From the IMG/VR virus record IMGVR_UViG_3300032268_000759, positions 32,001-96,000 of that record: a stretch of DNA of 64,000 bases; one strand, 5' to 3'. The position numbers were made by a program, and so were the translations under genes. Source of the DNA: an uncultured virus (IMG/VR IMGVR_UViG_3300032268_000759). Taxonomy: Duplodnaviria > Heunggongvirae > Uroviricota > Caudoviricetes. Shown here in pieces: positions 23,476 through 47,241 of this stretch. Below the pieces are notes generated by a model that was given only the letters and a program-made list of their open reading frames with translations, ran no database searches and had not been told where the DNA came from. Every line of letters begins with the position of its first letter. The stretch's first letter is position 1.

Positions 23476-24300
23476 ATGATAAAACTTGTAGACCTATTAT
23501 TAGAAATATCCCAAAATAAAATGGTAGTCATGGCTGGTGGAGCTGGGGCAGGTAAATCGTATTTACTTAATAAAGTAAAATCTAAAGAACCAAACATAAA
23601 AATACTTAATCCTGATTCATATATTGAGGACAAAAATAGTCCAATGTATAATAACTTAACAAAAGCATCATCACAAATTGATGATGTGGATGTACCTAAT
23701 GCTATAAGTAGAGGTGAATCATTTATTTGGGACACAACAGCATCTAATGCTGCTAAAATGATTGGTGGTGAATATCGTCGTAAACAAGTAAAAGGAATAT
23801 TAAATACTGAAGGTTATGATGAGATGATGGTAATGGTTTATACACATCCTATAGTGTCATTTTTACGTAACTTTAAACGTGAACGTAAAGTACCTACAGT
23901 AGGTGTATTATCAACTTGGAATAATGTTTATGGTAATATAGACACATATAAGTCGAAATTAGGCGATAATTTTATATTGTATCAAGCGCCTGATAAAGAA
24001 TACGCTAAAGAAATACAGGCGTTTAACTCAGCGATTTCTAACGGAAAATTAAATGACTATTTCTCAAACTTGTTATCAACAGGTGAATATGCTTCAACAT
24101 TTAGAAAAGACAAACCTGAACCACAAACACCAGAAGAAATAGAAAAAGCTGAAAAAGCTAAAGAACAATCAAAAGCTTTAGTTAACACTCAGATTGATAG
24201 ACTTGAAAAAGAGTTTATGAATATTGAAAATAAAATCAAAGATTCTATCATAACTGATGAGAATGAAGTAGTAAACAGAATAGTTAACTTTATAAAATGA
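23476..24300 (+). CDS. P-loop kinase (zeta-toxin/AAA_33-like)
   Basis: MAGGAGAGKS, LNPD, IWDTT, RNFKRER; leader MIKLVDLLLE; ATG at 23476. Confidence 0.7.
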   Translation: MIKLVDLLLEISQNKMVVMAGGAGAGKSYLLNKVKSKEPNIKILNPDSYIEDKNSPMYNNLTKASSQIDDVDVPNAISRGESFIWDTTASNAAKMIGGEYRRKQVKGILNTEGYDEMMVMVYTHPIVSFLRNFKRERKVPTVGVLSTWNNVYGNIDTYKSKLGDNFILYQAPDKEYAKEIQAFNSAISNGKLNDYFSNLLSTGEYASTFRKDKPEPQTPEEIEKAEKAKEQSKALVNTQIDRLEKEFMNIENKIKDSIITDENEVVNRIVNFIK

Positions 24301-25757
24301 GTTTAGGTAAATACTTAGCAGAAATTATAATAGAACCAACTCCTAAAAAAGTGGCTTTATATCCTGGTGCTTTTAAACCACCACATAAAGGACATTTTGA
24401 GTTAGTTCAACGTCTATCTAAAGTATCAGATGAAGTATTAGTCATTATATCTCCTATAGCTCGTGATGGTATCACAGCTGAACAATCTTTAAGTGCTTGG
24501 AAATTATATTTACCATTTTTACCTAAAGCAAAAGTAGTAATATCAAATGTATCTTCTCCTGTATCATATGTTTATGATTATGTAAAATCAAATCCACAAC
24601 AAGATATTCAAGTAGCATTTGGTAAAGATGAAGGTGAAAGATATAAAGCCTTTTTAAACAAAGAAAAATATCCAAATGTAAAAGTTTATGATGCTGGTAA
24701 TATAGGAAGTTTAAGTGCATCTGGTTTACGTGCAGCTATAAAATCTAATAATCCAGTTGATATAGCTAAATTTTTACCACAAGGTATAGAAGTAAATGAT
24801 TTTTTAAATGCTTTAAAACTTAGTCCAAGAACTGAACCTACATTTAATAGTATAAATGAAAATATATCTGACCCAGATTTTACAAATGCATTAGCTAGTA
24901 TAACTAAACATTATGTTGATAATGGATACAATGTAAAACCATTACCTAAAGTAAAAATAATAAGTAATGATGAAGTAAACGCTTCTAATATGTTAGGTAA
25001 AACAGCATATTATGATCCAACAAATAAATCAATTACTTTATTTACAGCTGGGAGACATCCAAAAGATATATTACGCTCATTCTCACATGAGATGATACAT
25101 CATATACAAAACTTAGAAAATAGATTAAATAATATTACTACTACCAACACAACTGAAGATGATTATTTAAGCCAATTAGAACAAGAAGCTTACTTAAACG
25201 GTAATATGAATTTTAGGAATTGGGAGGATGGTATTAAAAATAAGGTTATGAACGAACAACAAACAACAAATAAATACCGTATATTCTGTGATATGGATGG
25301 TGTATTAGTAGACTTTGACAAAGGTTATGAAGATTTAACAGGTTTACATACCAAACATGTTGATGTGCAAGATAGTAATGAGTTTTGGAACAAATTTAGA
25401 GAAGGATTAAAAGAAAAAAACATAGGTGAATTAGAATATTGGTCTAGATTAGACTGGATGTCTGATGGAAAAGAATTATGGAACTATATTAAACAATATA
25501 ACCCATATGTGTTAACAGCTCCATCTCGTGATCCTCAATCAAGAGAAGGTAAACGAGCTTGGGCTGAACGTTTAGATAATATGAAAAATATTTATTTTAA
25601 AGCAGCAGCATTTAAATCTGAATATGCTGCTCCAAATCGAATACTTATTGATGATAGAGCAGATACCATTGAAAAATGGAATAAAAATGGAGGTATAGGT
25701 ATATTACATACATCTACATCTGATACAATTGAACAACTTAAAAAATTAGGACTATAA
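24297..25757 (+). CDS. fusion of HxGH nucleotidyltransferase, zincin-like peptidase and HAD 5'-nucleotidase
   Basis: YPGAFKPPHKGH; RSFSHEMIHH..EQEAY; FCDMDGVLVDF..LIDD. Confidence 0.8.
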   Translation: MSLGKYLAEIIIEPTPKKVALYPGAFKPPHKGHFELVQRLSKVSDEVLVIISPIARDGITAEQSLSAWKLYLPFLPKAKVVISNVSSPVSYVYDYVKSNPQQDIQVAFGKDEGERYKAFLNKEKYPNVKVYDAGNIGSLSASGLRAAIKSNNPVDIAKFLPQGIEVNDFLNALKLSPRTEPTFNSINENISDPDFTNALASITKHYVDNGYNVKPLPKVKIISNDEVNASNMLGKTAYYDPTNKSITLFTAGRHPKDILRSFSHEMIHHIQNLENRLNNITTTNTTEDDYLSQLEQEAYLNGNMNFRNWEDGIKNKVMNEQQTTNKYRIFCDMDGVLVDFDKGYEDLTGLHTKHVDVQDSNEFWNKFREGLKEKNIGELEYWSRLDWMSDGKELWNYIKQYNPYVLTAPSRDPQSREGKRAWAERLDNMKNIYFKAAAFKSEYAAPNRILIDDRADTIEKWNKNGGIGILHTSTSDTIEQLKKLGL

Positions 25758-26164
25758 TGATAAAAAGATTAGTAACAGACTCACCAGAAACATTAAACAT
25801 ATTAGTGAATAATGTTAAAACTTTATTTACTAAAAAAGATAGTACAGGTAAACCATACAAGTACTCAACTAAAATTTCAACTGAAAAACGCAAATTTCAA
25901 AATCCAGATACTAAACAAATTGAAGAAAAGGATATTGAAGTACTAACTATCACTGATGTTGAAAGTAAAGATGTGGTAACAGTTAAAATGATACCACTTA
26001 TTAAACCAGGAGAAATGCGTTTTGAAATTGGTGGAGAAGGTGAAACTACAGTTGGATCTAAAATAAAAGATACAGTTATAGGTAAAGGTCAATGGAAAGA
26101 TTATTCTAAAGATACTTTAAAAACTAAGTTAACTGAAAATATTGTAAAAAAATTAAAACAATAA
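25757..26164 (+). CDS. hypothetical protein
   Basis: Coupled ORF. Confidence 0.55.
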   Translation: MIKRLVTDSPETLNILVNNVKTLFTKKDSTGKPYKYSTKISTEKRKFQNPDTKQIEEKDIEVLTITDVESKDVVTVKMIPLIKPGEMRFEIGGEGETTVGSKIKDTVIGKGQWKDYSKDTLKTKLTENIVKKLKQ

Positions 26165-26721
26165 TGTTAAATAAAGAGTTTCAAAAAAAAGATGTACAAC
26201 GTCTTCGTAATATTGTTCAAGGTAAATATGGAGATAAAACTGTTGTAGGTGTTGGTTATACTAAAAAATATGAAAATCATATTGAAGGAGATATATGGGA
26301 AGAAAATGGACGTACATGGACTATTAAGAATAGTATTAAACAAAATATAACTAAATTAGATAAAGCTAAAGAGTTATATGCTATGCCTATATTATGTCCT
26401 AAATGTAGTAAACCAATGAAATCTCATATAGATAAACCATTCTATAATATTCATAAGCAATGTATGAATTGTGTTGTTGAGTTTGAAACTAAATTAAAAA
26501 TAGAAGGTAAGTGGGAAGAATATCAAAAACAAATTCATAACTCAGAAATTGATAATGTAATTAATGAATTTAAAGTTTGGTCTCAAGAAGAACTAGATGA
26601 ATCAATAGAATCATTTGTAACTGAAGGAGGTGTTGTTGAAAAGTGGCAAGGAGGTAATAAAAATATTGTTAAACAAAATATAGAAGATTCTATAAAATTT
26701 TTGGAAACTCTTAAAAAATAA
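26164..26721 (+). CDS. zinc-binding hypothetical protein
   Basis: CPKC...CMNC. Confidence 0.6.
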   Translation: MLNKEFQKKDVQRLRNIVQGKYGDKTVVGVGYTKKYENHIEGDIWEENGRTWTIKNSIKQNITKLDKAKELYAMPILCPKCSKPMKSHIDKPFYNIHKQCMNCVVEFETKLKIEGKWEEYQKQIHNSEIDNVINEFKVWSQEELDESIESFVTEGGVVEKWQGGNKNIVKQNIEDSIKFLETLKK

Positions 26722-26758
26722 TTTTCCTATGTTTCACCTAATAAATTAAATATGGATA

Positions 26759-26980
26759 GTGATAAACAAGCAACAAAAGACGAACCTCGAAGTATTATCT
26801 CAAATATTATTAATGGTAGGAATGTTTTTCAATCCATTAGGTTTCGATATCCTTTTTTATTCAGTGATGAAACTCACGAATTCTTATTGGATTACAACAT
26901 CTCTTTTCTACCTGGCATCAGCGTCATGCTTTGGTGTTTATTACTTTTTGCGTAAAAAATTAAAGAATAATAAATCTTAA
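26759..26980 (+). CDS. small membrane protein
   Basis: Two hydrophobic segments and basic C-tail; GTG start. Confidence 0.5.
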   Translation: MINKQQKTNLEVLSQILLMVGMFFNPLGFDILFYSVMKLTNSYWITTSLFYLASASCFGVYYFLRKKLKNNKS

Positions 26981-27006
26981 CATATTTATATATAAATAAT
27001 AATACA

Positions 27007-27819
27007 ATGAACAATCAATTTAAAAGAATGCAAAAACTCGCTGGTCTAATTACTGAAGGTGAAGCTGCATACGAATATGAAAAAGGTAAAGAAGCTGGGG
27101 AAAAAGCTGAAAAGAAAAAAATGAAAAAATCTGAACTTAAAAAACAGATTAAAGAAATGATTTTAGCTGAGATAGATATTGATTTATCTAACACTGATAG
27201 TTTTTATGATTTCTTAGCTGAAGGAGAATTAACAGCTGATTCATTATATAAGATGTTTGAAAAAGAAGGTCTAATTGATGATAGACGTGAATATGATGAA
27301 GAAGATTTAATGGCTGCTTACCCTGGTTTATCTCAATCTGAAGCTGAAAAATTAGTAAATAAAATATCAGATGGGCTAAACGAAGCCAAGAAAAAGAAAA
27401 AAGATAAAGACAAAGAAGTTGAAGACGTTGAAATAGACACAGACGTTGATATGGGTGACAAAATGGATATGGGTGCCGAAATGAACACCACACCAGTTCC
27501 AGCAGCATCAGACGTTCAAAAAGAACTAATGGACGCGTTAGAAGCAGCTAAAGCATCAGGCGACGAAAAGTTAGTTCGTCAAATCGGAAATGCGTTAACA
27601 TACTTCACTCGTAGTCAAGTATCTAAAGACGAAAATCCACCATCAATGAATGAGGAAATAAGTATGGAAGCTATAGATAGACTAGAAGGTTTAGCTAATA
27701 TGCAAGATTTAGCTGTACTAAAAGCTAAACTTCGTATCTTATCTTCAGATTGGATGCAAGATGGATTTGAGAAAGAAGATATTATTGAATATATAACTGA
27801 ACTTATAAACCAAATATAA
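27007..27819 (+). CDS. putative head-packaged acidic protein
   Basis: QFKRMQKLAGLITE and MKKSELKKQIKE motifs. Confidence 0.55.
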   Translation: MNNQFKRMQKLAGLITEGEAAYEYEKGKEAGEKAEKKKMKKSELKKQIKEMILAEIDIDLSNTDSFYDFLAEGELTADSLYKMFEKEGLIDDRREYDEEDLMAAYPGLSQSEAEKLVNKISDGLNEAKKKKKDKDKEVEDVEIDTDVDMGDKMDMGAEMNTTPVPAASDVQKELMDALEAAKASGDEKLVRQIGNALTYFTRSQVSKDENPPSMNEEISMEAIDRLEGLANMQDLAVLKAKLRILSSDWMQDGFEKEDIIEYITELINQI

Positions 27820-27824
27820 ACAAA

Positions 27825-27992
27825 ATGAAACAAGAGTTATTTGAAAAAATGCATCAAACATGGGATATGTTTGTAGTAGAGCACAATGGTACAAGTAAAG
27901 CTGCTCAAGGTCGCGCAAGAAAATTATCAAGCGAACTAAAAAAGTTAGCTGCTGAATACAAAAAAGTATCAGTTGCTGAAGCGAAAGCATAA
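27825..27992 (+). CDS. histone H1-like (Hc1 family) protein
   Basis: Read by hand: MKQELFEKMHQTWDMFVVEHNGTSKAAQGRARKLSSELKKLAAEYKKVSVAEAKA; KAAxxRARK motif; absent from ORF track. Confidence 0.75.
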   Translation: MKQELFEKMHQTWDMFVVEHNGTSKAAQGRARKLSSELKKLAAEYKKVSVAEAKA

Positions 27993-28026
27993 TGAAGGTG
28001 GAGGACTTATATAGTCCTCCCTTCAT
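27992..28026 (+). terminator. hairpin after Hc1-like gene
   Basis: GGAGGACT-TATAT-AGTCCTCC extended by ATGAAG/CTTCAT. Confidence 0.55.
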
Positions 28027-28045
28027 ATTTAAAATAAAAAATACT

Positions 28046-29140
28046 ATGAAAAAATCAGAATTAAAAGAATATATTAAAGAACTTTATTCATCTAAAGATG
28101 AAACATTAAATGAAGAGTTTAATCCAGCTGACAAAATAATGATGGATGTTCCATTATTTATTCGTTTATTAGAATATGCTCGTGAAGATGCTAAAACTGA
28201 TATGGATTTACATAATATAACTGAAAAAGCTATTAGTTTAAGTACAGAAGATAAAGTATTAACTATGTCTGACTACAATAGTATTGTAGGTGGTTTAAAT
28301 GAAGGAATAGCTGGATCTCCTGGTTTATCTCAAATAGCAGATGAAATATACGCTAAGATGCCTAAAGAAGGATCTTATGATGCTTTTAAAGAAACTCAAA
28401 AGCATATTAAAGTATATAACTTAAGTCCTGAAGAAGAAAAACAAGTATATGCTATCATTAGAGACAAAGAAAATGACAATCTAGCAGAATCAGCTATTGG
28501 TGAAAAGAAATTAACATCTGCTGAGTTAAAAAAACGTGAAGAAATAGTTAAATCAATGAAAGATACTTTTAAAGGTCCTAAAGCAGCTATGTATGCTATA
28601 GCAACTGATAAAGCTAAAAGAGTAGCTGAAGATTTAGATATTGGTCATGAAGATGATGAGCCAGCAATGTTAAAAGCTGATGTTTATCGTATAATGGAAT
28701 ACGCTGAAGAATTATATAAAATGCTAAATACATTTGATCAAATATCAGGTGAAGTAGATTTTCCAGATTGGTGGCAATCAAAAATTCATATAGCAGCAGA
28801 AAATATGGATAAAGCTAAACATTATTTAGAATTTGAAATGAAACAATCTAGTATGGATAATAAGGTTAATATGTCTGCTTTAGCAGAAGTTATAGCTAAA
28901 AAATTAAAAGAATCAGCAGGTGGTACTTTAGATTTTGCTAGTGGTAAATTATCTAAACCAACCCCAAAAGAAGGTGAAGTATACTTAAAAGACTTAAAAC
29001 CAGGTGACAAATTTTCTACTGGTAAATTAGAATATGTAGTAGTAAATTCTGAAAAGGGTGATCGTGGAGTAGGAGTAAAATACTCAGATGGAACTGGCAA
29101 TATGAATTTCAGAGGAGATGTGATTGTTAAAAAGAAATAA
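28046..29140 (+). CDS. putative head-packaged multi-module protein
   Basis: Start MKKSELKEYIKE; modules separated by LNE/LAE/LKE. Confidence 0.55.
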   Translation: MKKSELKEYIKELYSSKDETLNEEFNPADKIMMDVPLFIRLLEYAREDAKTDMDLHNITEKAISLSTEDKVLTMSDYNSIVGGLNEGIAGSPGLSQIADEIYAKMPKEGSYDAFKETQKHIKVYNLSPEEEKQVYAIIRDKENDNLAESAIGEKKLTSAELKKREEIVKSMKDTFKGPKAAMYAIATDKAKRVAEDLDIGHEDDEPAMLKADVYRIMEYAEELYKMLNTFDQISGEVDFPDWWQSKIHIAAENMDKAKHYLEFEMKQSSMDNKVNMSALAEVIAKKLKESAGGTLDFASGKLSKPTPKEGEVYLKDLKPGDKFSTGKLEYVVVNSEKGDRGVGVKYSDGTGNMNFRGDVIVKKK

Positions 29141-29164
29141 TCAAATTTCTATAAATTAAAAATA

Positions 29165-29602
29165 ATGACTAAACAAGAACTAATAGATAAAATTAAGTCA
29201 ATAGCTAAAGAAAAATATGAGCCACAAATTACATTTGTGTCTGGTATGAAATTTACAGCTATTCAAGCATATCCTAAATTGCATGATGTGCTTGTTGAAT
29301 TAATGACTAATGCTTATGAAATATTTGTTGTTGATGTTGAATGGGTAGCCCCAAAACCAACAACATTTAGAATTCAATTAGCTAATGGTGAATATTTTTT
29401 CTTAACTAATACAGATAGAACTTGGATAGCAACAGTAGAAGGTAAAAAATTCTATATGCTAAATTTAAATGAAAAACAAGATGCTATTAATTCTATAGCT
29501 CGTGTGTTAAGATACGGTAAAACTAAATCAGAAATTGAAGCAACAAAAACAACTGAAAAAACTTCAACTGAAGAAATCCCAGAAGAATTACCAGCAGCCT
29601 AA
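29165..29602 (+). CDS. hypothetical protein
   Basis: Leader MTKQELIDKIKSIAKE. Confidence 0.55.
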   Translation: MTKQELIDKIKSIAKEKYEPQITFVSGMKFTAIQAYPKLHDVLVELMTNAYEIFVVDVEWVAPKPTTFRIQLANGEYFFLTNTDRTWIATVEGKKFYMLNLNEKQDAINSIARVLRYGKTKSEIEATKTTEKTSTEEIPEELPAA

Positions 29603-29613
29603 AATAAAATAAA

Positions 29614-30828: not shown

Positions 30829-30839
30829 TATTTATCAAC

Positions 30840-31703
30840 ATGGATAAATTAAGACAAATAATTAGAGAATCGTTAAAAAACCGCGCTTTAAATGAAGATT
30901 GCGGTTGTGGTTGCCATGGTAAGTGTGGTGATGATGCTCCTGTTTTAAATGAAAATTTAGCACGTAAACCATTACTAAGTGAACACCTACAATACCATGT
31001 TGATAATAAAAAACCACTAACTGAAAACACATTCCGTTATGGTTCCTCAGCATTCCTTGATTTATGGAAAGAAGCAAGAAAATTATACTCACGTAACTTA
31101 CTTGAAGTTGCTGGTTTAGATAAAGATATTATAGTTGAAACTGACTTAGGTGAATATGGTATATATGAAGGTCAAGAAGTACCATTAGATTTACCTATGA
31201 TTGAAGAAGGTCAAATGTTAGATAACTATGAAGTTGATTTTTTTCATACTAAAGCTAATGTATATGCTAATATAGAAATACCTAGTGAAAATCCAACATT
31301 TGAAGATGATATTCAAATAAAAGGAACAGGTAAAACTGAAGAAGAAGCTTTTGAAGATTTAAAACAAAATTACAATAATTACAAGAAAACAGGAATAAAT
31401 GAAGCTAAGTATCAAGGTAAAGAGGTTCAACTTAATAAACCTAAACGTGGTGGATCAAAGAAATTTTTTGTATATGTTATGAATCCTAAAACTAAAAAAG
31501 TTAAAAAAGTACAGTTTGGAGCAGCAGGTGGAGGTCAAAACTTAGCAGTTAAACTTAGAGATCCTAAAGCACGTAAAGCATTCGCTGCACGCCAAAACTG
31601 TGATAAGAAAAAAGACAGAACAACACCTGGTTACTGGAGTTGTAATATAGGTAGATATTGGAAATCATTGGGCGGTAGCTCAAATTTTAGCGGGTATTGG
31701 TAA
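30840..31703 (+). CDS. putative head-packaged multi-module protein
   Basis: Leader MDKLRQIIRES; C-terminal KKVQFG..RKAFAARQNC..GYWSC phage module after INE. Confidence 0.55.
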   Translation: MDKLRQIIRESLKNRALNEDCGCGCHGKCGDDAPVLNENLARKPLLSEHLQYHVDNKKPLTENTFRYGSSAFLDLWKEARKLYSRNLLEVAGLDKDIIVETDLGEYGIYEGQEVPLDLPMIEEGQMLDNYEVDFFHTKANVYANIEIPSENPTFEDDIQIKGTGKTEEEAFEDLKQNYNNYKKTGINEAKYQGKEVQLNKPKRGGSKKFFVYVMNPKTKKVKKVQFGAAGGGQNLAVKLRDPKARKAFAARQNCDKKKDRTTPGYWSCNIGRYWKSLGGSSNFSGYW

Positions 31704-31704
31704 T

Positions 31705-32055
31705 ATGAAACTATCAGAATTAAAACAAATAATTAGAGAAGAATACAGTTCAGCTTCAAAATTATATGAAATTGAAGGTGTTATTGCCATTGATACAGAT
31801 ACAGCATTTCATAAACAAATTATGTCTGATGTTCGCGCTATTAAAGGAGTTACAATTGTAAAGGATTATATTTATGACCCAGCAGGAGCATCAAGTAATA
31901 GAGGATATGCTAATTTAAATATAAAAATTGATCCATCACCATTTCCAGGTATGCAAGCTAAAGAAATTGTTGATATAGTAATTGATGATATTAAAAACAT
32001 TAAAGGTGTTCGGGCATTTAAATTAAAAAGTGGACCATTTAATGCTAATGTATAA
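31705..32055 (+). CDS. putative head-packaged protein
   Basis: Leader MKLSELKQIIREE. Confidence 0.5.
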   Translation: MKLSELKQIIREEYSSASKLYEIEGVIAIDTDTAFHKQIMSDVRAIKGVTIVKDYIYDPAGASSNRGYANLNIKIDPSPFPGMQAKEIVDIVIDDIKNIKGVRAFKLKSGPFNANV

Positions 32056-33005
32056 TGAATTTACAAAAACTAGTTAAAGAAGTATTAGATGAACAAAAAG
32101 TAAAACGTGATAGATGTTTACGTATTGCTGACCGTAAGTTTGATAAACCATCAGCTTATAAATCAGGTGCTGTTGTTCGTTGTCGTCAAGGAGATATTTG
32201 GAAAGGTATTAAAGAAGATGCTCATACTGTCACTGAAATTTATGATCAAAATATTATTAATCAAATATTTCAATCTAATTCTGAATTAGCAAGTGTAGGC
32301 ACACCTCAACAATACTCTCAATATTTAGATACTATATTTCCTAGTAGTAAAGTAAAAGATATTGTTTATCATGGTACTAATGCTAATGATATTGAAGGTG
32401 GTAGGTTAAGATTAAGTAAGGAAGGTGTGTATGGAGAAGGAATTTATGTTCAAACAAATAAAGAATTTACAGGAACATTTGGTTCAAATACACTTTCACT
32501 TATTATAGATACTAAAAAATCTTTTTCATTCTATGATAATGATGGCAAACCAAATAAACTATGGTTAACAATTCGTGATAAATACGCGAATATTAAAAAG
32601 TTTTATTGGGCTGATATTGCCAAAGAAGAATTTAGAGATGAAATTAAAAAGTTAGGTTATGATTCTATTAAGACAGAAGAAGGTGGTGGTAATGCATACT
32701 ATATCCTATTCAATCCAGAACAAATATATATATTAGGCTCTAAACAAGATATTGAAGGATTTAAAAAATCCATTAATAGATTAACTGAAGCTGAAAAAGA
32801 AACATTACGAGGTTGGTTTAAACGTTCTGGTCCTAAAGGTAAAGAAGGTGGATGGGTAGATTGCAATGCACCTGATGGAAAAGGAGGATATAAAGCATGT
32901 GGTAGAAAAAAAGGTGAAAAACGAGCTAAATATCCATCATGTCGTCCAACACCATCAGCATGTAAACAACCAGGCAAAGGTAAAAAGTGGGGGAAAACAA
33001 AATGA
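32055..33005 (+). CDS. ADP-ribosyltransferase-like (ART-PolyVal-like) domain inside a basic Cys-rich protein
   Basis: DIVYHGT...YGEGIYV...LGYDSIK..E..YILFNPEQI. Confidence 0.65.
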   Translation: MNLQKLVKEVLDEQKVKRDRCLRIADRKFDKPSAYKSGAVVRCRQGDIWKGIKEDAHTVTEIYDQNIINQIFQSNSELASVGTPQQYSQYLDTIFPSSKVKDIVYHGTNANDIEGGRLRLSKEGVYGEGIYVQTNKEFTGTFGSNTLSLIIDTKKSFSFYDNDGKPNKLWLTIRDKYANIKKFYWADIAKEEFRDEIKKLGYDSIKTEEGGGNAYYILFNPEQIYILGSKQDIEGFKKSINRLTEAEKETLRGWFKRSGPKGKEGGWVDCNAPDGKGGYKACGRKKGEKRAKYPSCRPTPSACKQPGKGKKWGKTK

Positions 33006-33640
33006 TTAAATTAATAGATATATTAAATGAAGTATTATCTGAAAATGATCCTAAAACAGGTACAGGTAAAAAACCTAAAGGATCAGGACGTCGTTTATAT
33101 ACAGATGAAGATCCTAAAGATACTGTATCTATTAAATTTAAAACTAAAGAAGATATAGTTAATACTTTAAATAAGAAATCATTTAAATCTAAACCTCATA
33201 ATCGTCAATCTCAAATTATTAATGTAATTCATCAACGAGTAAGAGCAGCATACAATAAAGCAAAAGAACCTGAAGTAAAATCTAGATTAAAACGTGCTTT
33301 AGATTATATTGAAAAACGTAAAGAAGCTTCTAAAAAGAAAACAGAACGTTTAAATAAATTAAAAGAAACACCAGATCCACAATCTGGCAAAGCAGCACCT
33401 TATGGTTCAGGATATGCTCCTATTAAAGAATTAGTAACAGACACAGAAGTTATTTGTGATAATTGTGGATGGGAATGGGATATAGCAGATGGTGGAGATG
33501 ATTTATATATTTGTCATAAATGTGGTCATGATAATACTCCAAAACAATTAAATGAAAAATGTTGGAAAGGATATACTCAAAAAGGTATGAAAACAATGTT
33601 TGGTAAAAAATATCCAAATTGTGTAAAAAATAAAAAATAA
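33002..33640 (+). CDS. putative head-packaged basic multi-module protein
   Basis: Start MIKLIDILNE; Zn ribbon CDNC..CHKC; KCWKGY..PNCV. Confidence 0.55.
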   Translation: MIKLIDILNEVLSENDPKTGTGKKPKGSGRRLYTDEDPKDTVSIKFKTKEDIVNTLNKKSFKSKPHNRQSQIINVIHQRVRAAYNKAKEPEVKSRLKRALDYIEKRKEASKKKTERLNKLKETPDPQSGKAAPYGSGYAPIKELVTDTEVICDNCGWEWDIADGGDDLYICHKCGHDNTPKQLNEKCWKGYTQKGMKTMFGKKYPNCVKNKK

Positions 33641-33643
33641 CTT

Positions 33644-33961: not shown

Positions 33962-33962
33962 T

Positions 33963-34843: not shown

Positions 34844-35235
34844 AACTATCAGATTTAAGAAAATTAATTAAAGAAGAATTAACTAATATAACTGGAATGC
34901 CAGTTGAAGAAGTAGCTCACAAATTAGAAAAAGATGAGTTAGGTAAATTCTATGTGGTAACAAAACCCACAGATATGAAAGATGAGAATATGATTGAAAC
35001 TAATATTCTTGAATTTGCTAAGAAAATTAAATCAGGTGAAATAGATGAAGCTCGAATCATGGGTGTATATGAAAAATCAGGTTCAGCTAAAACTAGAGCT
35101 AAAGAATTAATGAAAGAAATTGAAGATGAATTAAACGAACTTCAATTAACTATGGATGAATATAGAACTAAAAAATCAGAAATAGAAGAGAAAAAAGCAA
35201 AAGCAGCAGAAATTATTAAAAAATATAAAAAATAA
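34840..35235 (+). CDS. putative head-packaged protein
   Basis: Leader MKLSDLRKLIKEEL. Confidence 0.5.
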   Translation: MKLSDLRKLIKEELTNITGMPVEEVAHKLEKDELGKFYVVTKPTDMKDENMIETNILEFAKKIKSGEIDEARIMGVYEKSGSAKTRAKELMKEIEDELNELQLTMDEYRTKKSEIEEKKAKAAEIIKKYKK

Positions 35236-36569
35236 TGAAATTAACTGATATATATAAAGCTATTAAGGAAAAAATGAGTGAAGAAGATATTCTTGCTACA
35301 TTAAAAAAACAATTAGATCCTAAAAGTACAGTTAAAGTAAATAAACCTGTAGTTAAGCCAAATATTATCTATACTGATAAAGCAAATGAAGAAGTAGCTG
35401 AAGCCTATAGACAATACAATGAAGAAGCTGTTGATCTTGATAAGGAAATAATTGACAATACTACTGGAAGACCAATTGTAACATATATCCTTCCAAAAAA
35501 TGGTGATGGTTCATATAATGTTATTTATAATGATGCTACTACAGGTGTGATATATGTAAGTAATGATGCTTGGGATGAAATTAATAATTTAAATCAACCA
35601 AATATGAATGAAGATGAGACAGAAGAATTATCTGAAGCATATGTCCCTGATAATATTAAGAAGTTTGCAAAACAAAAAGGTGCTAGCTCATTAGTAAACA
35701 AAATAGCAGGTTGGGCTGAAAAAGCTGGCAAAGGTATTCGTGGTGGAACAGCAATTGGAAAAAATTATAGTACTCTTATTTTAGATTTATCATATCAAGA
35801 CGGAGCTATTCGTATTAATCTTGATGACTATACAATTGAATTATATGGTGAAGAAGTTAACAGCTTTAATGAATTCAAATCAGTTTTAGCAAAAGAACCA
35901 ATGGATAAAATGGATATGAATGAAGAATTCACACGTATACAAAAATTAGCAGGTGTAATCACAGAAAGTCAATATAAAGAAAAATTAAATGAAATAACTA
36001 TGAAAAAACAAATTTTAAATGAAGAATTCAAACGCATGCAAAAACTAGCAGGCATTATTAATGAAAATCAAATCAATGAAGTTGAAGTAGATAAAGAAAA
36101 ACTAATGCCTATATTTGATGAAGTATTTAATGATAAAATACAAGACTATTCATCACTAGTAGGTACAGATCCTATTTATGATGGTTTAAATAATGTGATC
36201 AAAGATCCAAGTGTTAAACAAGCAATATTTGATTGGGCTTATTTAATAACAACTGAGGATGAAGATGACGAAGAAGAAGTAATAGATATGTTTGGAGGTT
36301 ATGTTAGTGATGGTGTTGATTATAAAATCATGAAAACTTTTACCCCTCAATTAGCTAAAAACTTAATAAAAGCAGGATTTACTTATGATAAAGATGAGGA
36401 TATATGGACTATCCCTCAACCATACTTAGATAAAATAGATAGTTCATTTAACTACTCAGATGGCGCTACATCTTATGGTATTATTTGGGATGTTTGGGGT
36501 GTAGATTATGATACAAGTCCTAGAGAAAATATAGGCTCTTATTTAGAAGACGCTGCCCAAGAATTATAA
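35235..36569 (+). CDS. putative head-packaged polyprotein
   Basis: Two internal EEFxRxQKLAG motifs at 35916 and 36000. Confidence 0.55.
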   Translation: MKLTDIYKAIKEKMSEEDILATLKKQLDPKSTVKVNKPVVKPNIIYTDKANEEVAEAYRQYNEEAVDLDKEIIDNTTGRPIVTYILPKNGDGSYNVIYNDATTGVIYVSNDAWDEINNLNQPNMNEDETEELSEAYVPDNIKKFAKQKGASSLVNKIAGWAEKAGKGIRGGTAIGKNYSTLILDLSYQDGAIRINLDDYTIELYGEEVNSFNEFKSVLAKEPMDKMDMNEEFTRIQKLAGVITESQYKEKLNEITMKKQILNEEFKRMQKLAGIINENQINEVEVDKEKLMPIFDEVFNDKIQDYSSLVGTDPIYDGLNNVIKDPSVKQAIFDWAYLITTEDEDDEEEVIDMFGGYVSDGVDYKIMKTFTPQLAKNLIKAGFTYDKDEDIWTIPQPYLDKIDSSFNYSDGATSYGIIWDVWGVDYDTSPRENIGSYLEDAAQEL

Positions 36570-36651: not shown

Positions 36652-36656
36652 CTTAG

Positions 36657-36688: not shown

Positions 36689-36694
36689 TAGCAT

Positions 36695-38713: not shown

Positions 38714-38719
38714 AACAAG

Positions 38720-38751
38720 TTTGGCTCCTTCGGGAGCCTTACTTATATTTA
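38720..38751 (+). promoter_or_regulatory. Bacteroidota-type promoter overlapping cUUCGg hairpin
   Basis: TTTG 38720, GGCTCC-TTCG-GGAGCC, TATATTTA 38744; near copy of the 1499 element. Confidence 0.75.
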
Positions 38752-38768
38752 TAATATAAATCAAAGTT

Positions 38769-39008: not shown

Positions 39009-39011
39009 TAT

Positions 39012-39536: not shown

Positions 39537-39558
39537 TATTTATATGTAAATAAACAAT

Positions 39559-40221: not shown

Positions 40222-40223
40222 TC

Positions 40224-40772: not shown

Positions 40773-42346
40773 GTCAAGATATAAAACAAATCATCAGGCA
40801 AGAATACCTGAATTGTGCCAGTGACCCTGCACATTTCATGCGTAAATATTGTAATATACAGCATCCACAACGTGGTCGTGTTATATTTAATTTATACCCA
40901 TTTCAAGGTAAGGTATTAAATCTATGGAAAGAAAATCCATACTCTATTATCTTAAAATCAAGACAGTTAGGTATTTCTACTTTAGCTGCAGGATATTCTT
41001 TATGGTTAATGTTATTCCATAAAGATAAAAACGTATTATGTTTAGCTACAAAACAAGAAACAGCTAAAAATATGGTTACAAAGGTAAAGTTTATGTATGA
41101 AAACTTACCTTCATGGTTAAAAGTAACAGCTGAAGAAAATAATAAATTAACACTTAGATTAACTAATGGCTCCCAAATTAAAGCAGTATCGGCAGCAGGT
41201 GATGCAGGTCGTTCAGAAGCTGTATCATTACTTATTGTTGATGAGGCAGCATTTATTGATAATATAGGTGAGATTTGGGCTTCTGCTCAACAAACCTTAG
41301 CAACTGGTGGTGGTGCAATAGTATTATCTACTCCATATGGTACAGGTAATTGGTTTCATCAAACTTGGGTTAAAGCTGAATCTAATGAAAATCAATTTCT
41401 TCCTATTAAATTACCATGGTATGTACATCCTGAACGTAATGAAGAATGGAGAAAAATGCAAGATGAGTTATTAGGTGATCCTAGATTAGCAGCGCAAGAA
41501 TGTGATTGTGATTTTAGTACATCTGGTGATGTTGTATTTTATCCTGAGTTTATAGAATTTTATGACCAAACATATATCCAAGAACCACTTGAAAGAAGAG
41601 GAGTAGATAAAAATTTATGGGTATGGGAACCGGCTGATTGGGGTCGTTCATATATGGTTGTAGCTGACGTTGCTAGAGGTGACTCAAAAGATTACTCAGC
41701 ATTCCATGTGATTGATATAGAATCTAATACACAAGTAGCAGAATATAAAGGTCAATTAAGTACAACTGAATTTGGACATTTACTAGTAGGTATAGCTACT
41801 GAATATGCTGAGGCATTATTGGTAGTAGAAAATGCAAACATAGGTTGGTCAACATTACAAACAATATTGGAACGAGGATACAGAAATCTATATTTTTCAT
41901 CTAAAAGTGATAAAGCAGATTCTTCTACGTATTTTGATAAGTATGCAGATAATAGTAATATGACAGCTGGATTTACAAATTCATTAAAAACCAGACCAAT
42001 GGTGATTAATAAATTTAGAGAATATGTAAGTGAAAAAAGTATTATTATTAGATCAAGACGTTTACTTGAAGAAATGAAAGTGTTCATTTGGAAAAATGGT
42101 AGAGCAGAAGCTCAATCAGGCTATAATGATGATTTGGTTATGAGTATGGGTATTGGAATGTATGTTCGTGATACTGCATTAAGATTTAATCAAAATAGTG
42201 TAGATTTAACTAAAGCTGTAATAAATAACTTTACAAAATCAACATTCAACGCTGGGGCATATTCAAGTAATACCTCATATTCTCCAACAGCAGATTGGAA
42301 TATGGATGTGAACGGACAAAAAGAAGACATTAAATGGTTACTATAA
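40769..42346 (+). CDS. terL: terminase large subunit (gp17-like)
   Basis: KSRQLGIST Walker A, IVDEAAF Walker B, LSTPYG, ADVARG..DYS, NDDLVM. Confidence 0.95.
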   Translation: MSQDIKQIIRQEYLNCASDPAHFMRKYCNIQHPQRGRVIFNLYPFQGKVLNLWKENPYSIILKSRQLGISTLAAGYSLWLMLFHKDKNVLCLATKQETAKNMVTKVKFMYENLPSWLKVTAEENNKLTLRLTNGSQIKAVSAAGDAGRSEAVSLLIVDEAAFIDNIGEIWASAQQTLATGGGAIVLSTPYGTGNWFHQTWVKAESNENQFLPIKLPWYVHPERNEEWRKMQDELLGDPRLAAQECDCDFSTSGDVVFYPEFIEFYDQTYIQEPLERRGVDKNLWVWEPADWGRSYMVVADVARGDSKDYSAFHVIDIESNTQVAEYKGQLSTTEFGHLLVGIATEYAEALLVVENANIGWSTLQTILERGYRNLYFSSKSDKADSSTYFDKYADNSNMTAGFTNSLKTRPMVINKFREYVSEKSIIIRSRRLLEEMKVFIWKNGRAEAQSGYNDDLVMSMGIGMYVRDTALRFNQNSVDLTKAVINNFTKSTFNAGAYSSNTSYSPTADWNMDVNGQKEDIKWLL

Positions 42347-42359
42347 TATATTTATAAAC

Positions 42360-44240
42360 ATGGCAGATACCAACATATTTAATAGATTAAGACGATTATT
42401 TTCAACAGATGTTATCATTAGAAACACTGGAGGAAACGAATTACGAGTAGTGGATGTGAACGCTATTCAAAAATCAGGTGAAATAGAAACTAACTCATTA
42501 TTAGATAGATTCAATAGGATATATACAACAAGTCCTACCTCACTATATGGTTACCAACAAAACTTTAACTACCAAACACTACGTACTCAGTTATATTCAG
42601 AGTATGATGTTATGGATGGTGATGCTATTATTGCTTCAGCATTAGATATTATAGCAGATGAATCTACACTTAAAAATGAACAAGGTGAAGTACTTCATAT
42701 TAGATCAAGTGATGAAGATGTTCAAAAAATACTATATAATTTATTCTATGATGTATTAAATATAGAATTTAATTTATGGTCATGGATTCGCCAAATGTGT
42801 AAATATGGTGATTTCTTCTTAAAATTAGAAATAGCAGAAAAGTTTGGTGTATATAATGTTATACCATACTCTGCTTATCATATTGAAAGACAAGAACTAT
42901 ATGACCGTGAAAATCCATCATCAGTAAGATTTAGATTTGATCCAGAAGGTTTATCAGCGGGTGATTATGGTTACTATAACATGCCTGGTTCAAACCAAGG
43001 TAATTCTATTTATTTTGATAACTATGAAATAGCACATTTTCGCCTAATATCAGATACCAACTTTTTACCATATGGTAGAAGTTATATTGAGCCAGCTCGT
43101 AAGTTATTTAAACAATATGCATTAATGGAAGACGCGATGTTAATTCATCGTATTGTTCGCGCTCCTGAAAAACGTGTATTTTATATTAATGTAGGTGGAA
43201 TTGCACCAGCAGAAGTTGAAGCGTTCATGCAAAAAACTGTTAATACCATGAAACGTACTCCATATATGGATCCTAAAACTGGTGATTATAACTTAAAATA
43301 TAACATGCAAAACATGTTAGAAGATTTTTATATTCCAGTTCGTGGTAATGATCAAGCAACAAAAATTGATACTACTAAAGGATTAGATTATGATGGTATT
43401 AAAGACGTTGAATATTTACGTGATAAATTATTTGCTGCTTTAAAAGTACCAAAAGCGTTTATGGGTTATGAAAAAGACTTAACTGGTAAAGCAACTTTAG
43501 CAGCAGAGGATATTAGATTTGCTCGTACAATTGAGCGTATTCAACGTATCATATTATCAGAATTATATAAAATAGGATTAGTACATTTATATACTCAAGG
43601 TTATACTGAAGAGTCATTAACTAACTTTGAATTAAACTTAACAACTCCATCAATCATATATGATCAAGAACGTATTGCATTAATGAAAGAAAAAGTTGAA
43701 TTAGCTAATACTATAATGGAAGCACAATTATTACCATCAGATTGGGTTTATGATAATATATTCCACTTTAGTGATGATCAATATTCAGAATATAGAGATT
43801 TAATTCGTGAAGATGCTAAACGTAACTTTAGATTAACACAGATTAAAGAAGAAGGTAATGATCCATTAGAAACAGGTAAATCATATGGTACACCACACGA
43901 TTTAGCTTATTTATATGGTAATACTAAAACTCACGGGACTGTACCTGATGGGTATGATGAAAAAACACCACTAGGTCGTCCTAAAGAAAAAGCAAGTAGT
44001 ATAAACACACAAGACAATCCATTAGGAAGAGATAGATTAGGTGTTAATGATATGAAAGTTGATGACCAACCAACAGCAGGCCGTACAGCATTTAAAGGAG
44101 GATCAGCATTAGCTTTAGAAAATAACAAAACTGAATTTCATAAAAATAAAATTGTGTTAGAAGGTTTAAAAAAGAAATTAGTATTTGAAAATGATAAGGC
44201 AGCAGGTACATATCTAGATGAAAATCTACTTAAAGATTAA
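42360..44240 (+). CDS. portal protein (gp20-like)
   Basis: LMEDAMLIHRIVRAPEKRVFYINVG; EDFYIPVRG; LFAALKVP. Confidence 0.95.
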   Translation: MADTNIFNRLRRLFSTDVIIRNTGGNELRVVDVNAIQKSGEIETNSLLDRFNRIYTTSPTSLYGYQQNFNYQTLRTQLYSEYDVMDGDAIIASALDIIADESTLKNEQGEVLHIRSSDEDVQKILYNLFYDVLNIEFNLWSWIRQMCKYGDFFLKLEIAEKFGVYNVIPYSAYHIERQELYDRENPSSVRFRFDPEGLSAGDYGYYNMPGSNQGNSIYFDNYEIAHFRLISDTNFLPYGRSYIEPARKLFKQYALMEDAMLIHRIVRAPEKRVFYINVGGIAPAEVEAFMQKTVNTMKRTPYMDPKTGDYNLKYNMQNMLEDFYIPVRGNDQATKIDTTKGLDYDGIKDVEYLRDKLFAALKVPKAFMGYEKDLTGKATLAAEDIRFARTIERIQRIILSELYKIGLVHLYTQGYTEESLTNFELNLTTPSIIYDQERIALMKEKVELANTIMEAQLLPSDWVYDNIFHFSDDQYSEYRDLIREDAKRNFRLTQIKEEGNDPLETGKSYGTPHDLAYLYGNTKTHGTVPDGYDEKTPLGRPKEKASSINTQDNPLGRDRLGVNDMKVDDQPTAGRTAFKGGSALALENNKTEFHKNKIVLEGLKKKLVFENDKAAGTYLDENLLKD

Positions 44241-44277
44241 TATTTTTTATATATTTATAACAAAACTTACTTATTAA

Positions 44278-45135
44278 ATGAGTATTATCAAACATAATAA
44301 ATTCAAAAACTCAGGTATATTATTTGAATTGTTAGTTAGACAAATAACTAATGATACATTATCTGGGAAAGAATCTCCGGCTATTGATATTCTTAAAAAT
44401 AGCTTTGTTAAGTCAGAGTTAGGAAAAGAATATAAATTATATGAGACATTATTTAAGCAAACACAAATCAGCGAAACTAAAGCTAATATTATCATTGAAG
44501 AAGTATTAAAAGCATCTAAAAAACTTAATAGATCATCATTAAAAAGAGATAAATATAATCTAATTAATGAGATTAAAAAACATTATGATTTAGAAGAATT
44601 TTTTAAACATAAACTACCTAATTATAAATCTCAAGCTGCTCTATATACATTGATTGAAGTATATAATAATCAAGAAACAGTAAATCCTAATCAAGTTATA
44701 TCTAATAAAATTACATTATTAGAATCATTAACTAAACTCCCAGTTAAAGAAAAAGAGATTAGAGAAGATGTATTAAATGAATTTAAAACTTATGATAAAG
44801 ATTTACGTTTATTAACATACCAGGTATTATTAGAAAAATTTAATAATAAATATGGTTCATTAAATGATAATCAAAAATTAATATTACGTGAATTTATAAA
44901 TGCTGTTGATAATCCATCACGCTTAAAAGATTTCTACAACCAAAAAATAGTTGAAGTTAAAACTCAATTAACTAAGTCAATAGAAAAAATTAATGATAAA
45001 GTAACTCAGATTAAATTAACTGAAGTGTTATCATTAATTAATGAAGTAGATAAAACCTCTAAAGTGTCTAATGATGATGTAATTAATTTATTACAATATT
45101 ATTCATTAGTTGAAGAATTAAAGGCAGTAAAATAA
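44278..45135 (+). CDS. head-module hypothetical protein
   Basis: Helical ORF directly after portal. Confidence 0.6.
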   Translation: MSIIKHNKFKNSGILFELLVRQITNDTLSGKESPAIDILKNSFVKSELGKEYKLYETLFKQTQISETKANIIIEEVLKASKKLNRSSLKRDKYNLINEIKKHYDLEEFFKHKLPNYKSQAALYTLIEVYNNQETVNPNQVISNKITLLESLTKLPVKEKEIREDVLNEFKTYDKDLRLLTYQVLLEKFNNKYGSLNDNQKLILREFINAVDNPSRLKDFYNQKIVEVKTQLTKSIEKINDKVTQIKLTEVLSLINEVDKTSKVSNDDVINLLQYYSLVEELKAVK

Positions 45136-45767
45136 TGGATAGACTAAAAAACGCAGTTAAAAAGGTATTAAAAGAAATGTCTATGACTGGTGGTGGAACA
45201 GCAGGTGCTGCTTTCTCTCCTGGTGTAGGTATGAATTATGCTACTCCTAAAGCATTTAAAAAGAAAAAACTTAAAGAGGTTAGTGGCTATAAAGGAATTG
45301 ATGGCTCATTTGATACAGCTCTTCAATGGATTTGGTTTTTTGGTGGTAAAGAATTACTACAAAATAAATTAGAAATTTATAGTACAAGCCAAAACTACTT
45401 TAGATTTAAAAAAGCTATGGAAAATGGTAAAATTACTATCCAAGACTTAGATAAAGCTACAAAAGGAGAACATGGACAAACCGGTGGTATACCTTTTTCA
45501 CAAACAGCAGTTTGGACACAAGATATAAAACCATACTTAGATAGAGTTAAACAAGATAAAATTAATGATTTAAATATTGATTTAGAAGAAACTAAAACTC
45601 CATACGGTACAGGTAACTTAGGCCCAGGCCCAAAAGCAACAGAACAAGGTGTTAAAGATAATTACTATGTTAAAGCATTTGGTTTTAAACTTGTTGACAG
45701 AAAAAAATTAGCAAAAGCATCTAAAACAATAGATTATAAAGATCTATGGGGTGCTACATATAAATAA
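45135..45767 (+). CDS. putative prohead core/cargo protein
   Basis: Leader ending VLKE; modules bounded by LKE/LEE. Confidence 0.5.
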   Translation: MDRLKNAVKKVLKEMSMTGGGTAGAAFSPGVGMNYATPKAFKKKKLKEVSGYKGIDGSFDTALQWIWFFGGKELLQNKLEIYSTSQNYFRFKKAMENGKITIQDLDKATKGEHGQTGGIPFSQTAVWTQDIKPYLDRVKQDKINDLNIDLEETKTPYGTGNLGPGPKATEQGVKDNYYVKAFGFKLVDRKKLAKASKTIDYKDLWGATYK

Positions 45768-45792
45768 TATTTATTGATATAATATAAAAACA

Positions 45793-47241
45793 ATGACACT
45801 TCAAGAACAATACAATCTAATTAAAGAAGGTAAAGGTGCTAAAGATGTATTTACAAAACATGCTAAAGCTTTATTTCCTCATTTAATTCCAAATCATTTT
45901 GGATTTGATAATACATCTCAAATCTTAACTCAACGTGGAATAATCTCAGAAAATCTTTGGGGTATAGCTACAGGTAATAATCAACAACCAGACTGGTTTA
46001 AAATATTTAATGAAGCTCAAGAAACTAATGTTAAAGCTGATGAAAAGAAACCATCTAAAGAAGTAGATGTATATAAAGATAAGTCATATCATAATCAATA
46101 TGAAGCTGAAACTGGTGATGATGTAATATTTGATCAATATCTAAGAGGTATTCAATTAGAAACAACTAATCCTAAAAATGCAGATAAAACTGTTGATGAA
46201 CTTAAAAAAATGGTATTAAAAAATCTTAAAAAAGATAAATTATACTACACTAAAAATGCTGCCTTTGGAATTGAAGGTATTGGCTACACAGATGAAGCAC
46301 CAGGTTTAGGTAAAACTAAAGAAGTAAAAGGTAAATATGCTTCATCGGGTATGGAACCAGTTAAAATAAAGGAATCATATGATTATGAAACACAAGCTGA
46401 TTTGACAGCAATGGCTAAAGATAGCGATATGTTGAAAGATGATCCTAAAGTAAAAAAAGCTGCGGAATTTATAGGAATGAATGCATCTGATGTTGATATG
46501 ATTGGTATATTAACAAACGCATATGTTAAAAAATATAATATTACTGACTCAGATCTAATATCTCATATAATAGATCAAGCATATAATATTTTTAAATCTA
46601 GATTTTCAAAAACAAATGAAGGTATTGGAATGTTTATGGATCCTATAGGATACGATAAAGGTTCTAAATCTCAAATGGAAAAAGCTCGTGATATATTAAA
46701 AGACGCAGGATTATCTAAGGAAGAAATAGAAACATTTATTAGTAATAATATGTTTAAAAAAGGAAGATTAGATGATTTAGCTCAAGAATTTATCAAAAGT
46801 AATTTAGAAGAATCAGAATTACGTTCAATACTTCGTCAAATTATTAAAGAAGAACTTAACTTAAAAGAAATTGATCAAATTGGTGAAGAAGCTTCAAAAA
46901 TGGCTAAAATTAAAAAAGTTAGTGATGAGATAACTAAACGTAAGAAAAAACTTAAAGCGTTAGAAACCTTAAAAGAACTTGAAGATGACTCAATCAACCC
47001 AGGTAAAATAAAAGAACTATATGGTGACGTTAAGAAACTGGAGAAGATGAAAGAAAAACTTGAGAAAAAAGGTAAGAAAAAAGAAAAAACAGAATTAGTT
47101 GATGAAGTAGTGGTGGTGAGTGATAAAACAACTCCTGAAGAAGTATCTTCAATAGTTAAAACAGGTGATACAACCATGGATGCTATAAAAGCTGCTGTAA
47201 TGCAAGCTAAAAAAACAAAACAACCAGTAACCGTATCATAA
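45793..47241 (+). CDS. putative prohead core/cargo protein
   Basis: Many [LI]xE sites; internal SELRSILRQIIKEE. Confidence 0.5.
   Translation: MTLQEQYNLIKEGKGAKDVFTKHAKALFPHLIPNHFGFDNTSQILTQRGIISENLWGIATGNNQQPDWFKIFNEAQETNVKADEKKPSKEVDVYKDKSYHNQYEAETGDDVIFDQYLRGIQLETTNPKNADKTVDELKKMVLKNLKKDKLYYTKNAAFGIEGIGYTDEAPGLGKTKEVKGKYASSGMEPVKIKESYDYETQADLTAMAKDSDMLKDDPKVKKAAEFIGMNASDVDMIGILTNAYVKKYNITDSDLISHIIDQAYNIFKSRFSKTNEGIGMFMDPIGYDKGSKSQMEKARDILKDAGLSKEEIETFISNNMFKKGRLDDLAQEFIKSNLEESELRSILRQIIKEELNLKEIDQIGEEASKMAKIKKVSDEITKRKKKLKALETLKELEDDSINPGKIKELYGDVKKLEKMKEKLEKKGKKKEKTELVDEVVVVSDKTTPEEVSSIVKTGDTTMDAIKAAVMQAKKTKQPVTVS

Follow-up and report, generated by a model that had tools for sequence, protein, structure and literature searches.

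What is encoded by the genes that lie directly upstream of the head genes in the phage genome studied here? The phage is T4-like, with aquatic bacteria as hosts, and the window analysed (64,000 nucleotides) is bases 32001–96000 of one 154,840-bp contig with 29% G+C (IMG/VR record IMGVR_UViG_3300032268_000759). About 19 open reading frames (ORFs), mostly without annotation, fill the region from approximately 20.8 to 36.6 kb of the window, on the same strand as the terminase, portal, protease and capsid genes that follow. A sequence-only reading had proposed that four of them (24297, 28046, 30840 and 33002; ORFs are called here by their first position in the window) encode strings of effector domains joined at prohead-protease sites of the form [LIMV]xE. 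All 15 sites that it named in these proteins are present at their places, as are the LLE and VME sites of the capsid leader. Our analysis suggests, on balance, that the genes ahead of the head module code for polyproteins destined for the capsid as cargo, which would probably be cut apart by the S77 prohead protease of the phage. Direct observations, described below, are the motif with its placement and conservation pattern, the shuffling of the modules, and a protease that is present and intact.

ORF 24297 encodes three modules behind a short leader (Table 1). Foldseek matches module 1 to NaMN/PPAT adenylyltransferases, confirming the fold, and PHROGs labels the C-terminal domain as a 5'-3' deoxyribonucleotidase. 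The zincin-like domain between them has HExxH and a downstream Glu; its best Pfam match, MPTase-PolyVal, is sub-threshold (E 0.012, 16.2 bits against a cut-off of 27.5). The AlphaFold model, calculated with a 30-sequence alignment, has three separate folded domains, with a predicted local distance difference test score (pLDDT) of 85.7 and a predicted template modelling score (pTM) of 0.41. The pLDDT falls below 50 only at residues 178–192, 286–290 and 316–324, and SINE188 and VMNE320 sit in the two of these segments that are inter-domain. The protein has six [LIMV]xE sites in total; besides the two at the linkers, two are located in the leader and two in the HAD cap. For 24297, the predicted structure bears out the expectation that the sites which separate the modules are found in linkers.

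The 24297 protein has more than 590 relatives in IMG/VR, among which the modules are fused, split or rearranged. Its parts may be fused, encoded by neighbouring separate ORFs, interrupted by inserted modules, placed behind an N-terminal module of about 290 residues, or joined to a P-loop kinase-like protein. In 12 collinear homologues (37–80% identity) a hydrophobic-x-Glu is kept at both junctions, while the other linker residues diverge. Junction 1 occurs as SINE, SITE, SIAE, SLYE, ELKE, PLKE, TLKE or SLNE and junction 2 as VMNE, MIFE, EIFE, MIYE or SMNE. Three independent insertions in the homologues begin at the junction sites and close in another site. In the window, a P-loop kinase-like protein is encoded at 23476–24300, its start being probably an internal Met (leader MIKLVDLLLE), as in its homologues; in other phages this protein is joined to the HAD nucleotidase via ELNE or MLAE.

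The borders of modules were then analysed across the family. Eighty loci with 10-kb flanks were kept from the relatives of the 24297 protein, and an IMG/VR scan with the protease gave a further 80 head modules (at least 74% identity), bringing the relatives to about 160 loci. The 1865 ORFs of this genome and the 80 cargo-region loci were compared all against all by BLAST. An insertion was defined as at least 25 extra residues where the partner has no more than 8; the 211 cases fall into 27 clusters of inserted sequence. Of the 21 clusters from cargo proteins, 18 have a site no more than 5 residues from the left edge, 16 have one as close to the right edge and 12 have sites at both, against expectations of approximately 20%, 20% and 5%; cassettes thus begin and end at the sites, as the sequence-only reading had anticipated for orthologues. 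None of the six clusters of tail-fibre type has a site at its edge. The controls at the insertion edges (P3, P2 and P1 denote the three motif residues, P1 being the Glu) are flat: LxD, LxK, LxQ, LxN and Ser replacing the Glu do not exceed expectation, and neither do small or aromatic residues replacing the hydrophobic P3. At the borders [AGSTP]xE shows no excess (0.25 on the left and 0.03 on the right; expectation 0.18), and [DENQKR]xE is mildly raised, as acidic linkers would give.

The ends of high-scoring segment pairs (HSPs) peak exactly on the motif, 2.5–3.4 fold for [LIMV]xE and 6–7.5 fold for [LIMV]NE. When the four named proteins were scored by HSP ends, 11 of the 15 named sites reached at least the 75th percentile of breakpoint support, as did 7 of the 9 [LIMV]NE sites; unnamed sites within conserved domains scored zero. 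In an anchored survey, domain starts with at least 10 preceding residues were taken, a site was sought 1–10 residues upstream, and unique contexts were counted. A site precedes the HAD domain in 43 of 44 contexts, the upstream partner being a leader, the zincin domain or the kinase-like domain. The same holds for 27/27 contexts of the nucleotidyltransferase (adenylyltransferase) and 16/16 of the C-terminal basic module of 30840. In these joints P3 is L more often than I and I more often than M or V, nearly any residue occurs at P2, and P1 is Glu without exception. The coincidence of domain and module borders with [LIMV]xE therefore stands, on the linkers of the 24297 model, the HSP ends and the anchored surveys alike.

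The position of the sites is non-random, although the motif as first proposed is too loose. The 19 cargo ORFs were compared with the other 195 ORFs, the expectations being calculated analytically from composition. The cargo ORFs hold 112 [LIMV]xE against 91 expected (ratio 1.22, with 1.19 in the other ORFs), and about half of the sites fall within folded domains, where their frequency is that of the background. When all tripeptides were scanned without bias, L-N-E ranked first in the cargo, with 16 occurrences against 1.9 expected (9-fold, z 10.3; the runner-up has z 5.1); the rest of the proteome has 28 against 16 expected. [LIMV]NE occurs 26 times in the cargo ORFs against 5.7 expected (4.6-fold). 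The informative signal is site position together with the narrower [LIM]-N-E subset, not the generic count. DNA microhomology at the joints was considered as a recombination signal and set aside; it is inseparable from protein-level selection because the L-N-E codons are nearly fixed at 29% G+C.

By homology breakpoints, the proteins 28046, 30840, 32055 and 33002 consist of three to five modules each, and orthologues of 28046 and 33002 begin at the same Met, in support of the internal starts from which the sequence-only reading had taken these two proteins. In 28046, module A (DVPLFIRLLEYAREDAKTD..., between TLNE and GLNE) equals a free-standing ORF of 79–86 residues in six loci. The order of modules A, C and D differs between phages, and modules B and E are present in some relatives and absent in others. 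The cassette slot of 30840 was followed in an alignment of 15 homologues: [LIM]xE is kept at its left edge in 15/15 and at its right edge in 14/15, and some homologues have nothing in the slot, others unrelated inserts of 65–145 residues. The C-terminal module of this protein is phrog_7595, and free-standing ORFs of pelagiphages and roseophages start at the equivalent of its residue 189, right after GINE188.

The slot of 32055 is fixed after G[IL]KE (homologues in loci L002, L004, L008, L014, L024, L031, L075 and L080). It is empty in one relative, contains an ART-PolyVal domain in the window (36–39 bits against the Pfam cut-off of 31.2) and a ParB-like DGAHR domain in another relative (L075), and otherwise holds unknown domains; an LNE or LTE/LxE site closes each of these inserts. 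Homologues of 33002 stop or start at residues ~124–130, ~149–155 and ~190, which correspond to KLKE, PIKE and QLNE, and its zinc ribbon (PIKE to QLNE) recurs within unrelated proteins. The suggestion that modules can be swapped at the linkers agrees with what is seen in the relatives, where modules are fused, split, permuted and exchanged at the sites. The closest cultured relative is Flavobacterium phage vB_FspM_immuto (capsid identity 56%), in which homologues of window ORFs 27992 and 29165 are linked by an internal SKSELKEIMLE leader to form gp079. This protein (L001 19007–21532, 841 residues) draws on the module families seen in the window and has seven xNE sites besides the internal leader; immuto gp088 (L001 12132–14855, 907 residues) is likewise a string of these families.

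Table 1. Features of the cargo block and the head genes, with positions in the window
Feature	Position (nt)	Strand	Residues, sites or motifs	Basis
Three-module protein 24297	24297–25757	+		Pfam, PHROGs, AlphaFold, Foldseek
24297 leader			13 residues, final IIE
24297 module 1, HxGH adenylyltransferase			residues 18–176
24297 linker 1	24849–24860		SINE188
24297 module 2, HExxH zincin-like domain			residues 194–316
24297 linker 2	25245–25256		VMNE320
24297 module 3, HAD/NT5C nucleotidase			residues 327–486
Protein with initial FKRMQKLAGLITE tag and second, internal leader	27007–27819	+	internal leader KKSELKKQIKE
Five-module string 28046	28046–29140	+	leader KKSELKEYIKE	homology breakpoints
28046 joint	28103–28114		TLNE
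28046 joint	28292–28303		GLNE
28046 joint	28478–28489		NLAE
28046 joint	28619–28630		RVAE
28046 joint	28901–28912		KLKE
Multi-module protein 30840 with cassette slot	30840–31703	+
30840 end of leader	30885–30896		ALNE
30840 end of Cys-rich mini-module	30942–30953		VLNE
30840 end of conserved domain	31197–31208		MIEE
30840 end of 65-residue variable cassette, before basic C-terminal module	31392–31403		GINE
Small basic Cys-rich protein 32055, split by cassette slot	32055–33005	+
ART-PolyVal domain in 32055 slot	32217–32789		between GIKE54 and RLTE245	Pfam E 1e-9
Multi-module protein 33002	33002–33640	+
33002 leader	33032–33043 (VLSE)		MIKLIDILNE/VLSE
33002 end of basic module	33356–33367		KLKE
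33002 end of short peptide	33419–33430		PIKE
33002 end of zinc ribbon, before basic tail	33545–33556		QLNE
Fusion protein 35235	35235–36569	+	N-terminal MKLTDIYKAIKE leader, two internal RxQKLAG[IV]I tags
RMQKLAG-type tag copies in window (further loci L032, L065, L070, L072)	21152–21175; 27022–27045; 36033–36056
FAD oxidoreductase (ordinary gene)	36695
DUF6884 (ordinary gene)	38008
AAA_28 kinase (ordinary gene)	39012
T4-type large terminase	40769	+
gp20 portal	42360	+
Two head-core-position proteins (gp67/gp68 place in T4)	45135–47241	+	cleavable-looking leaders: VLKE before MSMTGGG, LIKE before GKG
Prohead protease, peptidase family S77, T4 gp21-like	47243–47857	+		Pfam PF03420 E 1e-30
Acidic scaffold	48055–49152	+	24 [LIMV]xE, 4 of them xNE; C-terminus NRFQKLAGII
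gp23-type major capsid protein	49180–50859	+	559 residues	Pfam Gp23 E 3e-77
Capsid leader	49180–49359		residues 1–60; LLE9, LLE35, MLE51, VME60

A site is located within residues 5–24, that is, in the leader, in 14 of the 19 cargo ORFs and in 65 of the 195 other ORFs (Fisher p 8e-4). Many homologues have no leader (for example MKIAIYPGAFKPPH or MYTIYCDMDG), and the internal nucleotidyltransferase retains its leader after fusion; judged from these sequences, the leaders are add-ons to modules. A second tag, RMQKLAG[IL]I, equals the C-terminus of the scaffold (49123–49152) and is also found on unrelated small proteins. Its unique contexts are C-terminal in 23, N-terminal in 16 and internal in 1, and a hydrophobic-x-Glu is present on the cargo side in 40 of 41 checks. 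The peptide looks like an address peptide that mimics the scaffold. In 35235 one internal tag is preceded by MKKQILNE, here internal, the sequence with which the protein of ORF 21119 begins. The proposal that one tag loads a whole string did not hold, as there are many internal modules that still have a leader or RMQKLAG[IL] peptide of their own; the strings therefore look like fused units of tag, joint and module.

The protease aligns with the structure of T4 gp21 (5jbl; phmmer E 3e-15, residues 30–169), including the motifs ELDHP, SSRG and WDFV, which we take to be the catalytic residues of an S77 protease. On this alignment, the phage encodes an S77 protease of the gp21 type with an intact core. 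The C-terminus of the protease keeps [LIMV]xE followed by [GS] in 26 homologues (MMNE175 in the window). The capsid leader was also read from an alignment of 26 homologues; its four sites are conserved, the last as L-V-x-E60 with M, V, I, S, T or L at x. In an alignment to mature T4 gp23*, E60 is located no more than 5 residues from the equivalent of the T4 gp23 maturation cut. The leaders of the core proteins read [LI]xE followed by GKG and xLKE followed by MSxTGGG in at least 20 homologues, with P2 free and the Glu invariant. The sites of the capsid, the protease and the core proteins, which by homology and position are substrates of T4 type, follow the same rule as the cargo joints (P3 hydrophobic, P2 free, P1 Glu), and the preference for Glu over Asp mirrors that of the T4 enzyme. 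That the capsid leader shares the motif, as the sequence-only reading had said, is thus seen, and the protease and the core proteins have it as well.

Other features of the head proteins were observed in passing. A Ser/Thr/Gly/Ala-rich stretch of about 140 residues in the capsid protein (49480–50040) separates the two blocks of T4 gp23 similarity and is probably a lineage-specific insertion domain. After its leader, the core-position protein at 45135–45767 repeats the predicted mature N-terminus of the capsid protein (49180–49440): Glu is followed by MSMTGGGTAGAAF in one and by SSQTGAGTAGAAF in the other, and this is kept in relatives. A helical protein of 285 residues, encoded between portal and protease (44278–45135), has 19 [LIMV]xE against 7.4 expected; a role as a core or scaffold-like protein, degraded at maturation, is possible.

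From these data we infer packaging, cleavage and delivery as follows. The unit would be a small enzyme or binding domain behind a short exposed linker that ends in hydrophobic-x-Glu, often L/I/M-N-E. Many units would retain an address peptide that can be removed; this would be the RMQKLAG[IL]I peptide or, at the N-terminus, an amphipathic leader like MKLSELKQIIRE. The address peptides would bring the precursor into the assembling prohead core. There the S77 protease, activated inside the prohead, would cut after the Glu in the linkers, removing the tags and separating the modules. The modules would remain with the DNA and be delivered at infection, the set comprising the adenylyltransferase, the nucleotidase, the zincin-like domain, the ADP-ribosyltransferase, zinc ribbons and basic proteins. 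As every module would have its own joint, modules could be fused, split, reordered or exchanged without loss of processing, and such exchangeable jointed modules would explain the mosaic among relatives.

The main rival is that no cleavage occurs: the proteins would be intact multidomain enzymes, packaged or not, and the hydrophobic-x-Glu would move with the modules as a docking peptide, a structural linker or an element at the ends of helices. In favour of this, untagged versions exist for many of the modules, which are metabolic enzymes; nucleotide enzymes are commonly fused into multidomain proteins, and the 28046 model puts several sites at helix ends. A structural feature, however, would not exclude Asp, Gln, Lys and Asn from the last position, nor would it be expected to agree with the sites that are conserved in the capsid leader and at the C-terminus of the protease. 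Freely permuted modules and the low pTM also argue against a need for fusion, and we regard this rival as unlikely, with perhaps a chance in the range of one in a few. The joints could alternatively be true processing sites of another enzyme, either the zincin-like domain of 24297, acting in cis or in trans, before packaging or after injection, or a host protease. The zincin-like domain has HExxH with a downstream Glu and MPTase-PolyVal as its top, though sub-threshold, Pfam match; an ART-PolyVal domain is present, and domain release driven by MPTase has been proposed by Iyer et al. (PMC5512222). Against the zincin, the leaders of capsid, protease and core proteins, which are classical S77 substrates, keep the same P3/P1 rule, and the rule at the joints fits the specificity of T4 gp21, including the exclusion of Asp. 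We know of no Glu-specific cutting in this zincin family, and consider a different processing enzyme improbable.

Chance would require that Glu/Leu-rich linkers of an AT-rich genome yield LxE and that border-like examples were picked. The generic density does equal the expectation from composition, the choice of sites was post hoc, and [DENQKR]xE is mildly raised at borders. The unbiased tests contradict this explanation, namely the tripeptide scan, the insertion edges compared with control motifs and tail fibres, and the anchored survey. It has very little to recommend it and is excluded for practical purposes.

Several observations weigh against cutting of the strings by the prohead protease. 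The generic [LIMV]xE density in the cargo is background, equal to the rest of the proteome, and the motif by itself has no predictive value. The scaffold does carry such sites, 24 of them, but 18.9 are expected from its 21% Glu, and composition explains the count. The AlphaFold model of 28046 (pLDDT 66, C-terminal 73 residues unresolved) is too poor for the linker test that 24297 allowed; in it 3–4 of 12 sites are located in or beside low-confidence segments, which is not significant alone and gives weak support. The adenylyltransferase, nucleotidase and P-loop kinase-like modules are ordinary metabolic enzymes of which untagged versions exist, and the C-terminal module of 30840 is also found in podophages apparently without such a system. 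In the window as a whole, TATAAATA, the late-promoter consensus of T4, occurs 32 times where 26 are expected, which is no enrichment, and upstream of the cargo genes it is likewise uninformative. In the literature, no virion proteome, N-terminal sequence or cleavage assay was found for this phage, immuto or relatives. The insertion clusters share approximately six to eight slots and several upstream partners, so that p-values overstate independence; the pattern at the borders is nevertheless consistent and the controls are flat.

A close parallel in function is provided by the internal proteins of T4. T4 gp21 cuts after Glu in L/I-x-E, and Asp at P1 blocks processing; ten N-terminal residues that end in a site (the capsid targeting sequence, CTS) suffice for packaging into the head, and the ADP-ribosyltransferase Alt enters the head and is trimmed at its two ends (PMC9026906). 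The proteins described here resemble IPI, IPII, IPIII and Alt of T4 (PMC9026906, PMC3012670) in the S77 protease family, in the rule (hydrophobic P3, free P2, Glu P1, Asp not tolerated), in short leaders that end in a site, in genes that vary between phages and in including one ADP-ribosyltransferase cargo. T4 cargo proteins, in contrast, are single modules that lose short terminal peptides, whereas here, as seen in the genes, three to six unrelated modules have a site at each internal joint and some have internal tags. The cargo leaders have no sequence similarity to the T4 CTS, and the second tag type copies the scaffold C-terminus.

Polyvalent proteins also combine unrelated effector domains in one polypeptide beside virion genes, in a mosaic fashion, and release of the domains by proteolysis through an embedded zincin MPTase has been proposed for them (Iyer, Burroughs, Anand, de Souza, Aravind 2017, PMC5512222). 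The families overlap in ART-PolyVal, in the ParB-like cassette (only in a homologue) and in the weak, sub-threshold MPTase-PolyVal match. No junction motif is defined in the polyvalent model, whereas here a motif is present at the joints and matches the prohead serine protease; the present proteins are also much smaller (200–500 residues) and more numerous. In the giant phages phiKZ, 201phi2-1 and SPN3US, gp175/gp245 cut inner-body or ejection proteins (PMC10052503, PMC5694885). With a gp21-related protease, cutting after Glu at a three-residue motif and several sites per protein, that system is like the one proposed here. The motif there is S/A-x-E (A-x-E in SPN3US), in contrast to L, I, M or V at P3 here, and the multiple cuts degrade long propeptides and do not yield separate folded enzymes; there is no sequence relation. 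No description of cargo polyproteins with protease joints was found in the literature covered, which excludes subscription journals and leaves absence unproven.

The range 24297–47241, which had been taken as cargo throughout, is too wide: the four named genes belong to the block, but the range also includes the ordinary genes for the FAD oxidoreductase, DUF6884 and AAA_28, as well as terminase and portal. A PhoH gene is also located on the plus strand with the head genes.

A wider reading, which we put forward tentatively and hold to be somewhat less probable than its opposite, is a plug-and-play cargo in a large clade of aquatic T4-like phages. A joint and one of the two address peptides would make a small protein injectable, strings would be cut by the prohead protease, and the set of enzymes would be delivered at DNA entry. 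The copy of RMQKLAGII would dock the cargo wherever the scaffold docks. The payload would comprise the adenylyltransferase, the nucleotidase, the ADP-ribosyltransferase and nuclease-like cassettes; a possible use is to pre-empt defences that deplete nucleotides or NAD. The cultured phage immuto has the same architecture, and the idea is therefore directly testable there. If the joints are cut, the capsid cargo of T4-like phages would be a combinatorial, rapidly reshuffled enzyme payload and not a few small internal proteins, and the hypervariable gene block beside the head genes would be explained. The grammar of tag, joint and module would then permit the prediction of injected effectors across thousands of uncultured phage genomes, and would represent a natural design rule for loading multiple proteins into phage capsids.

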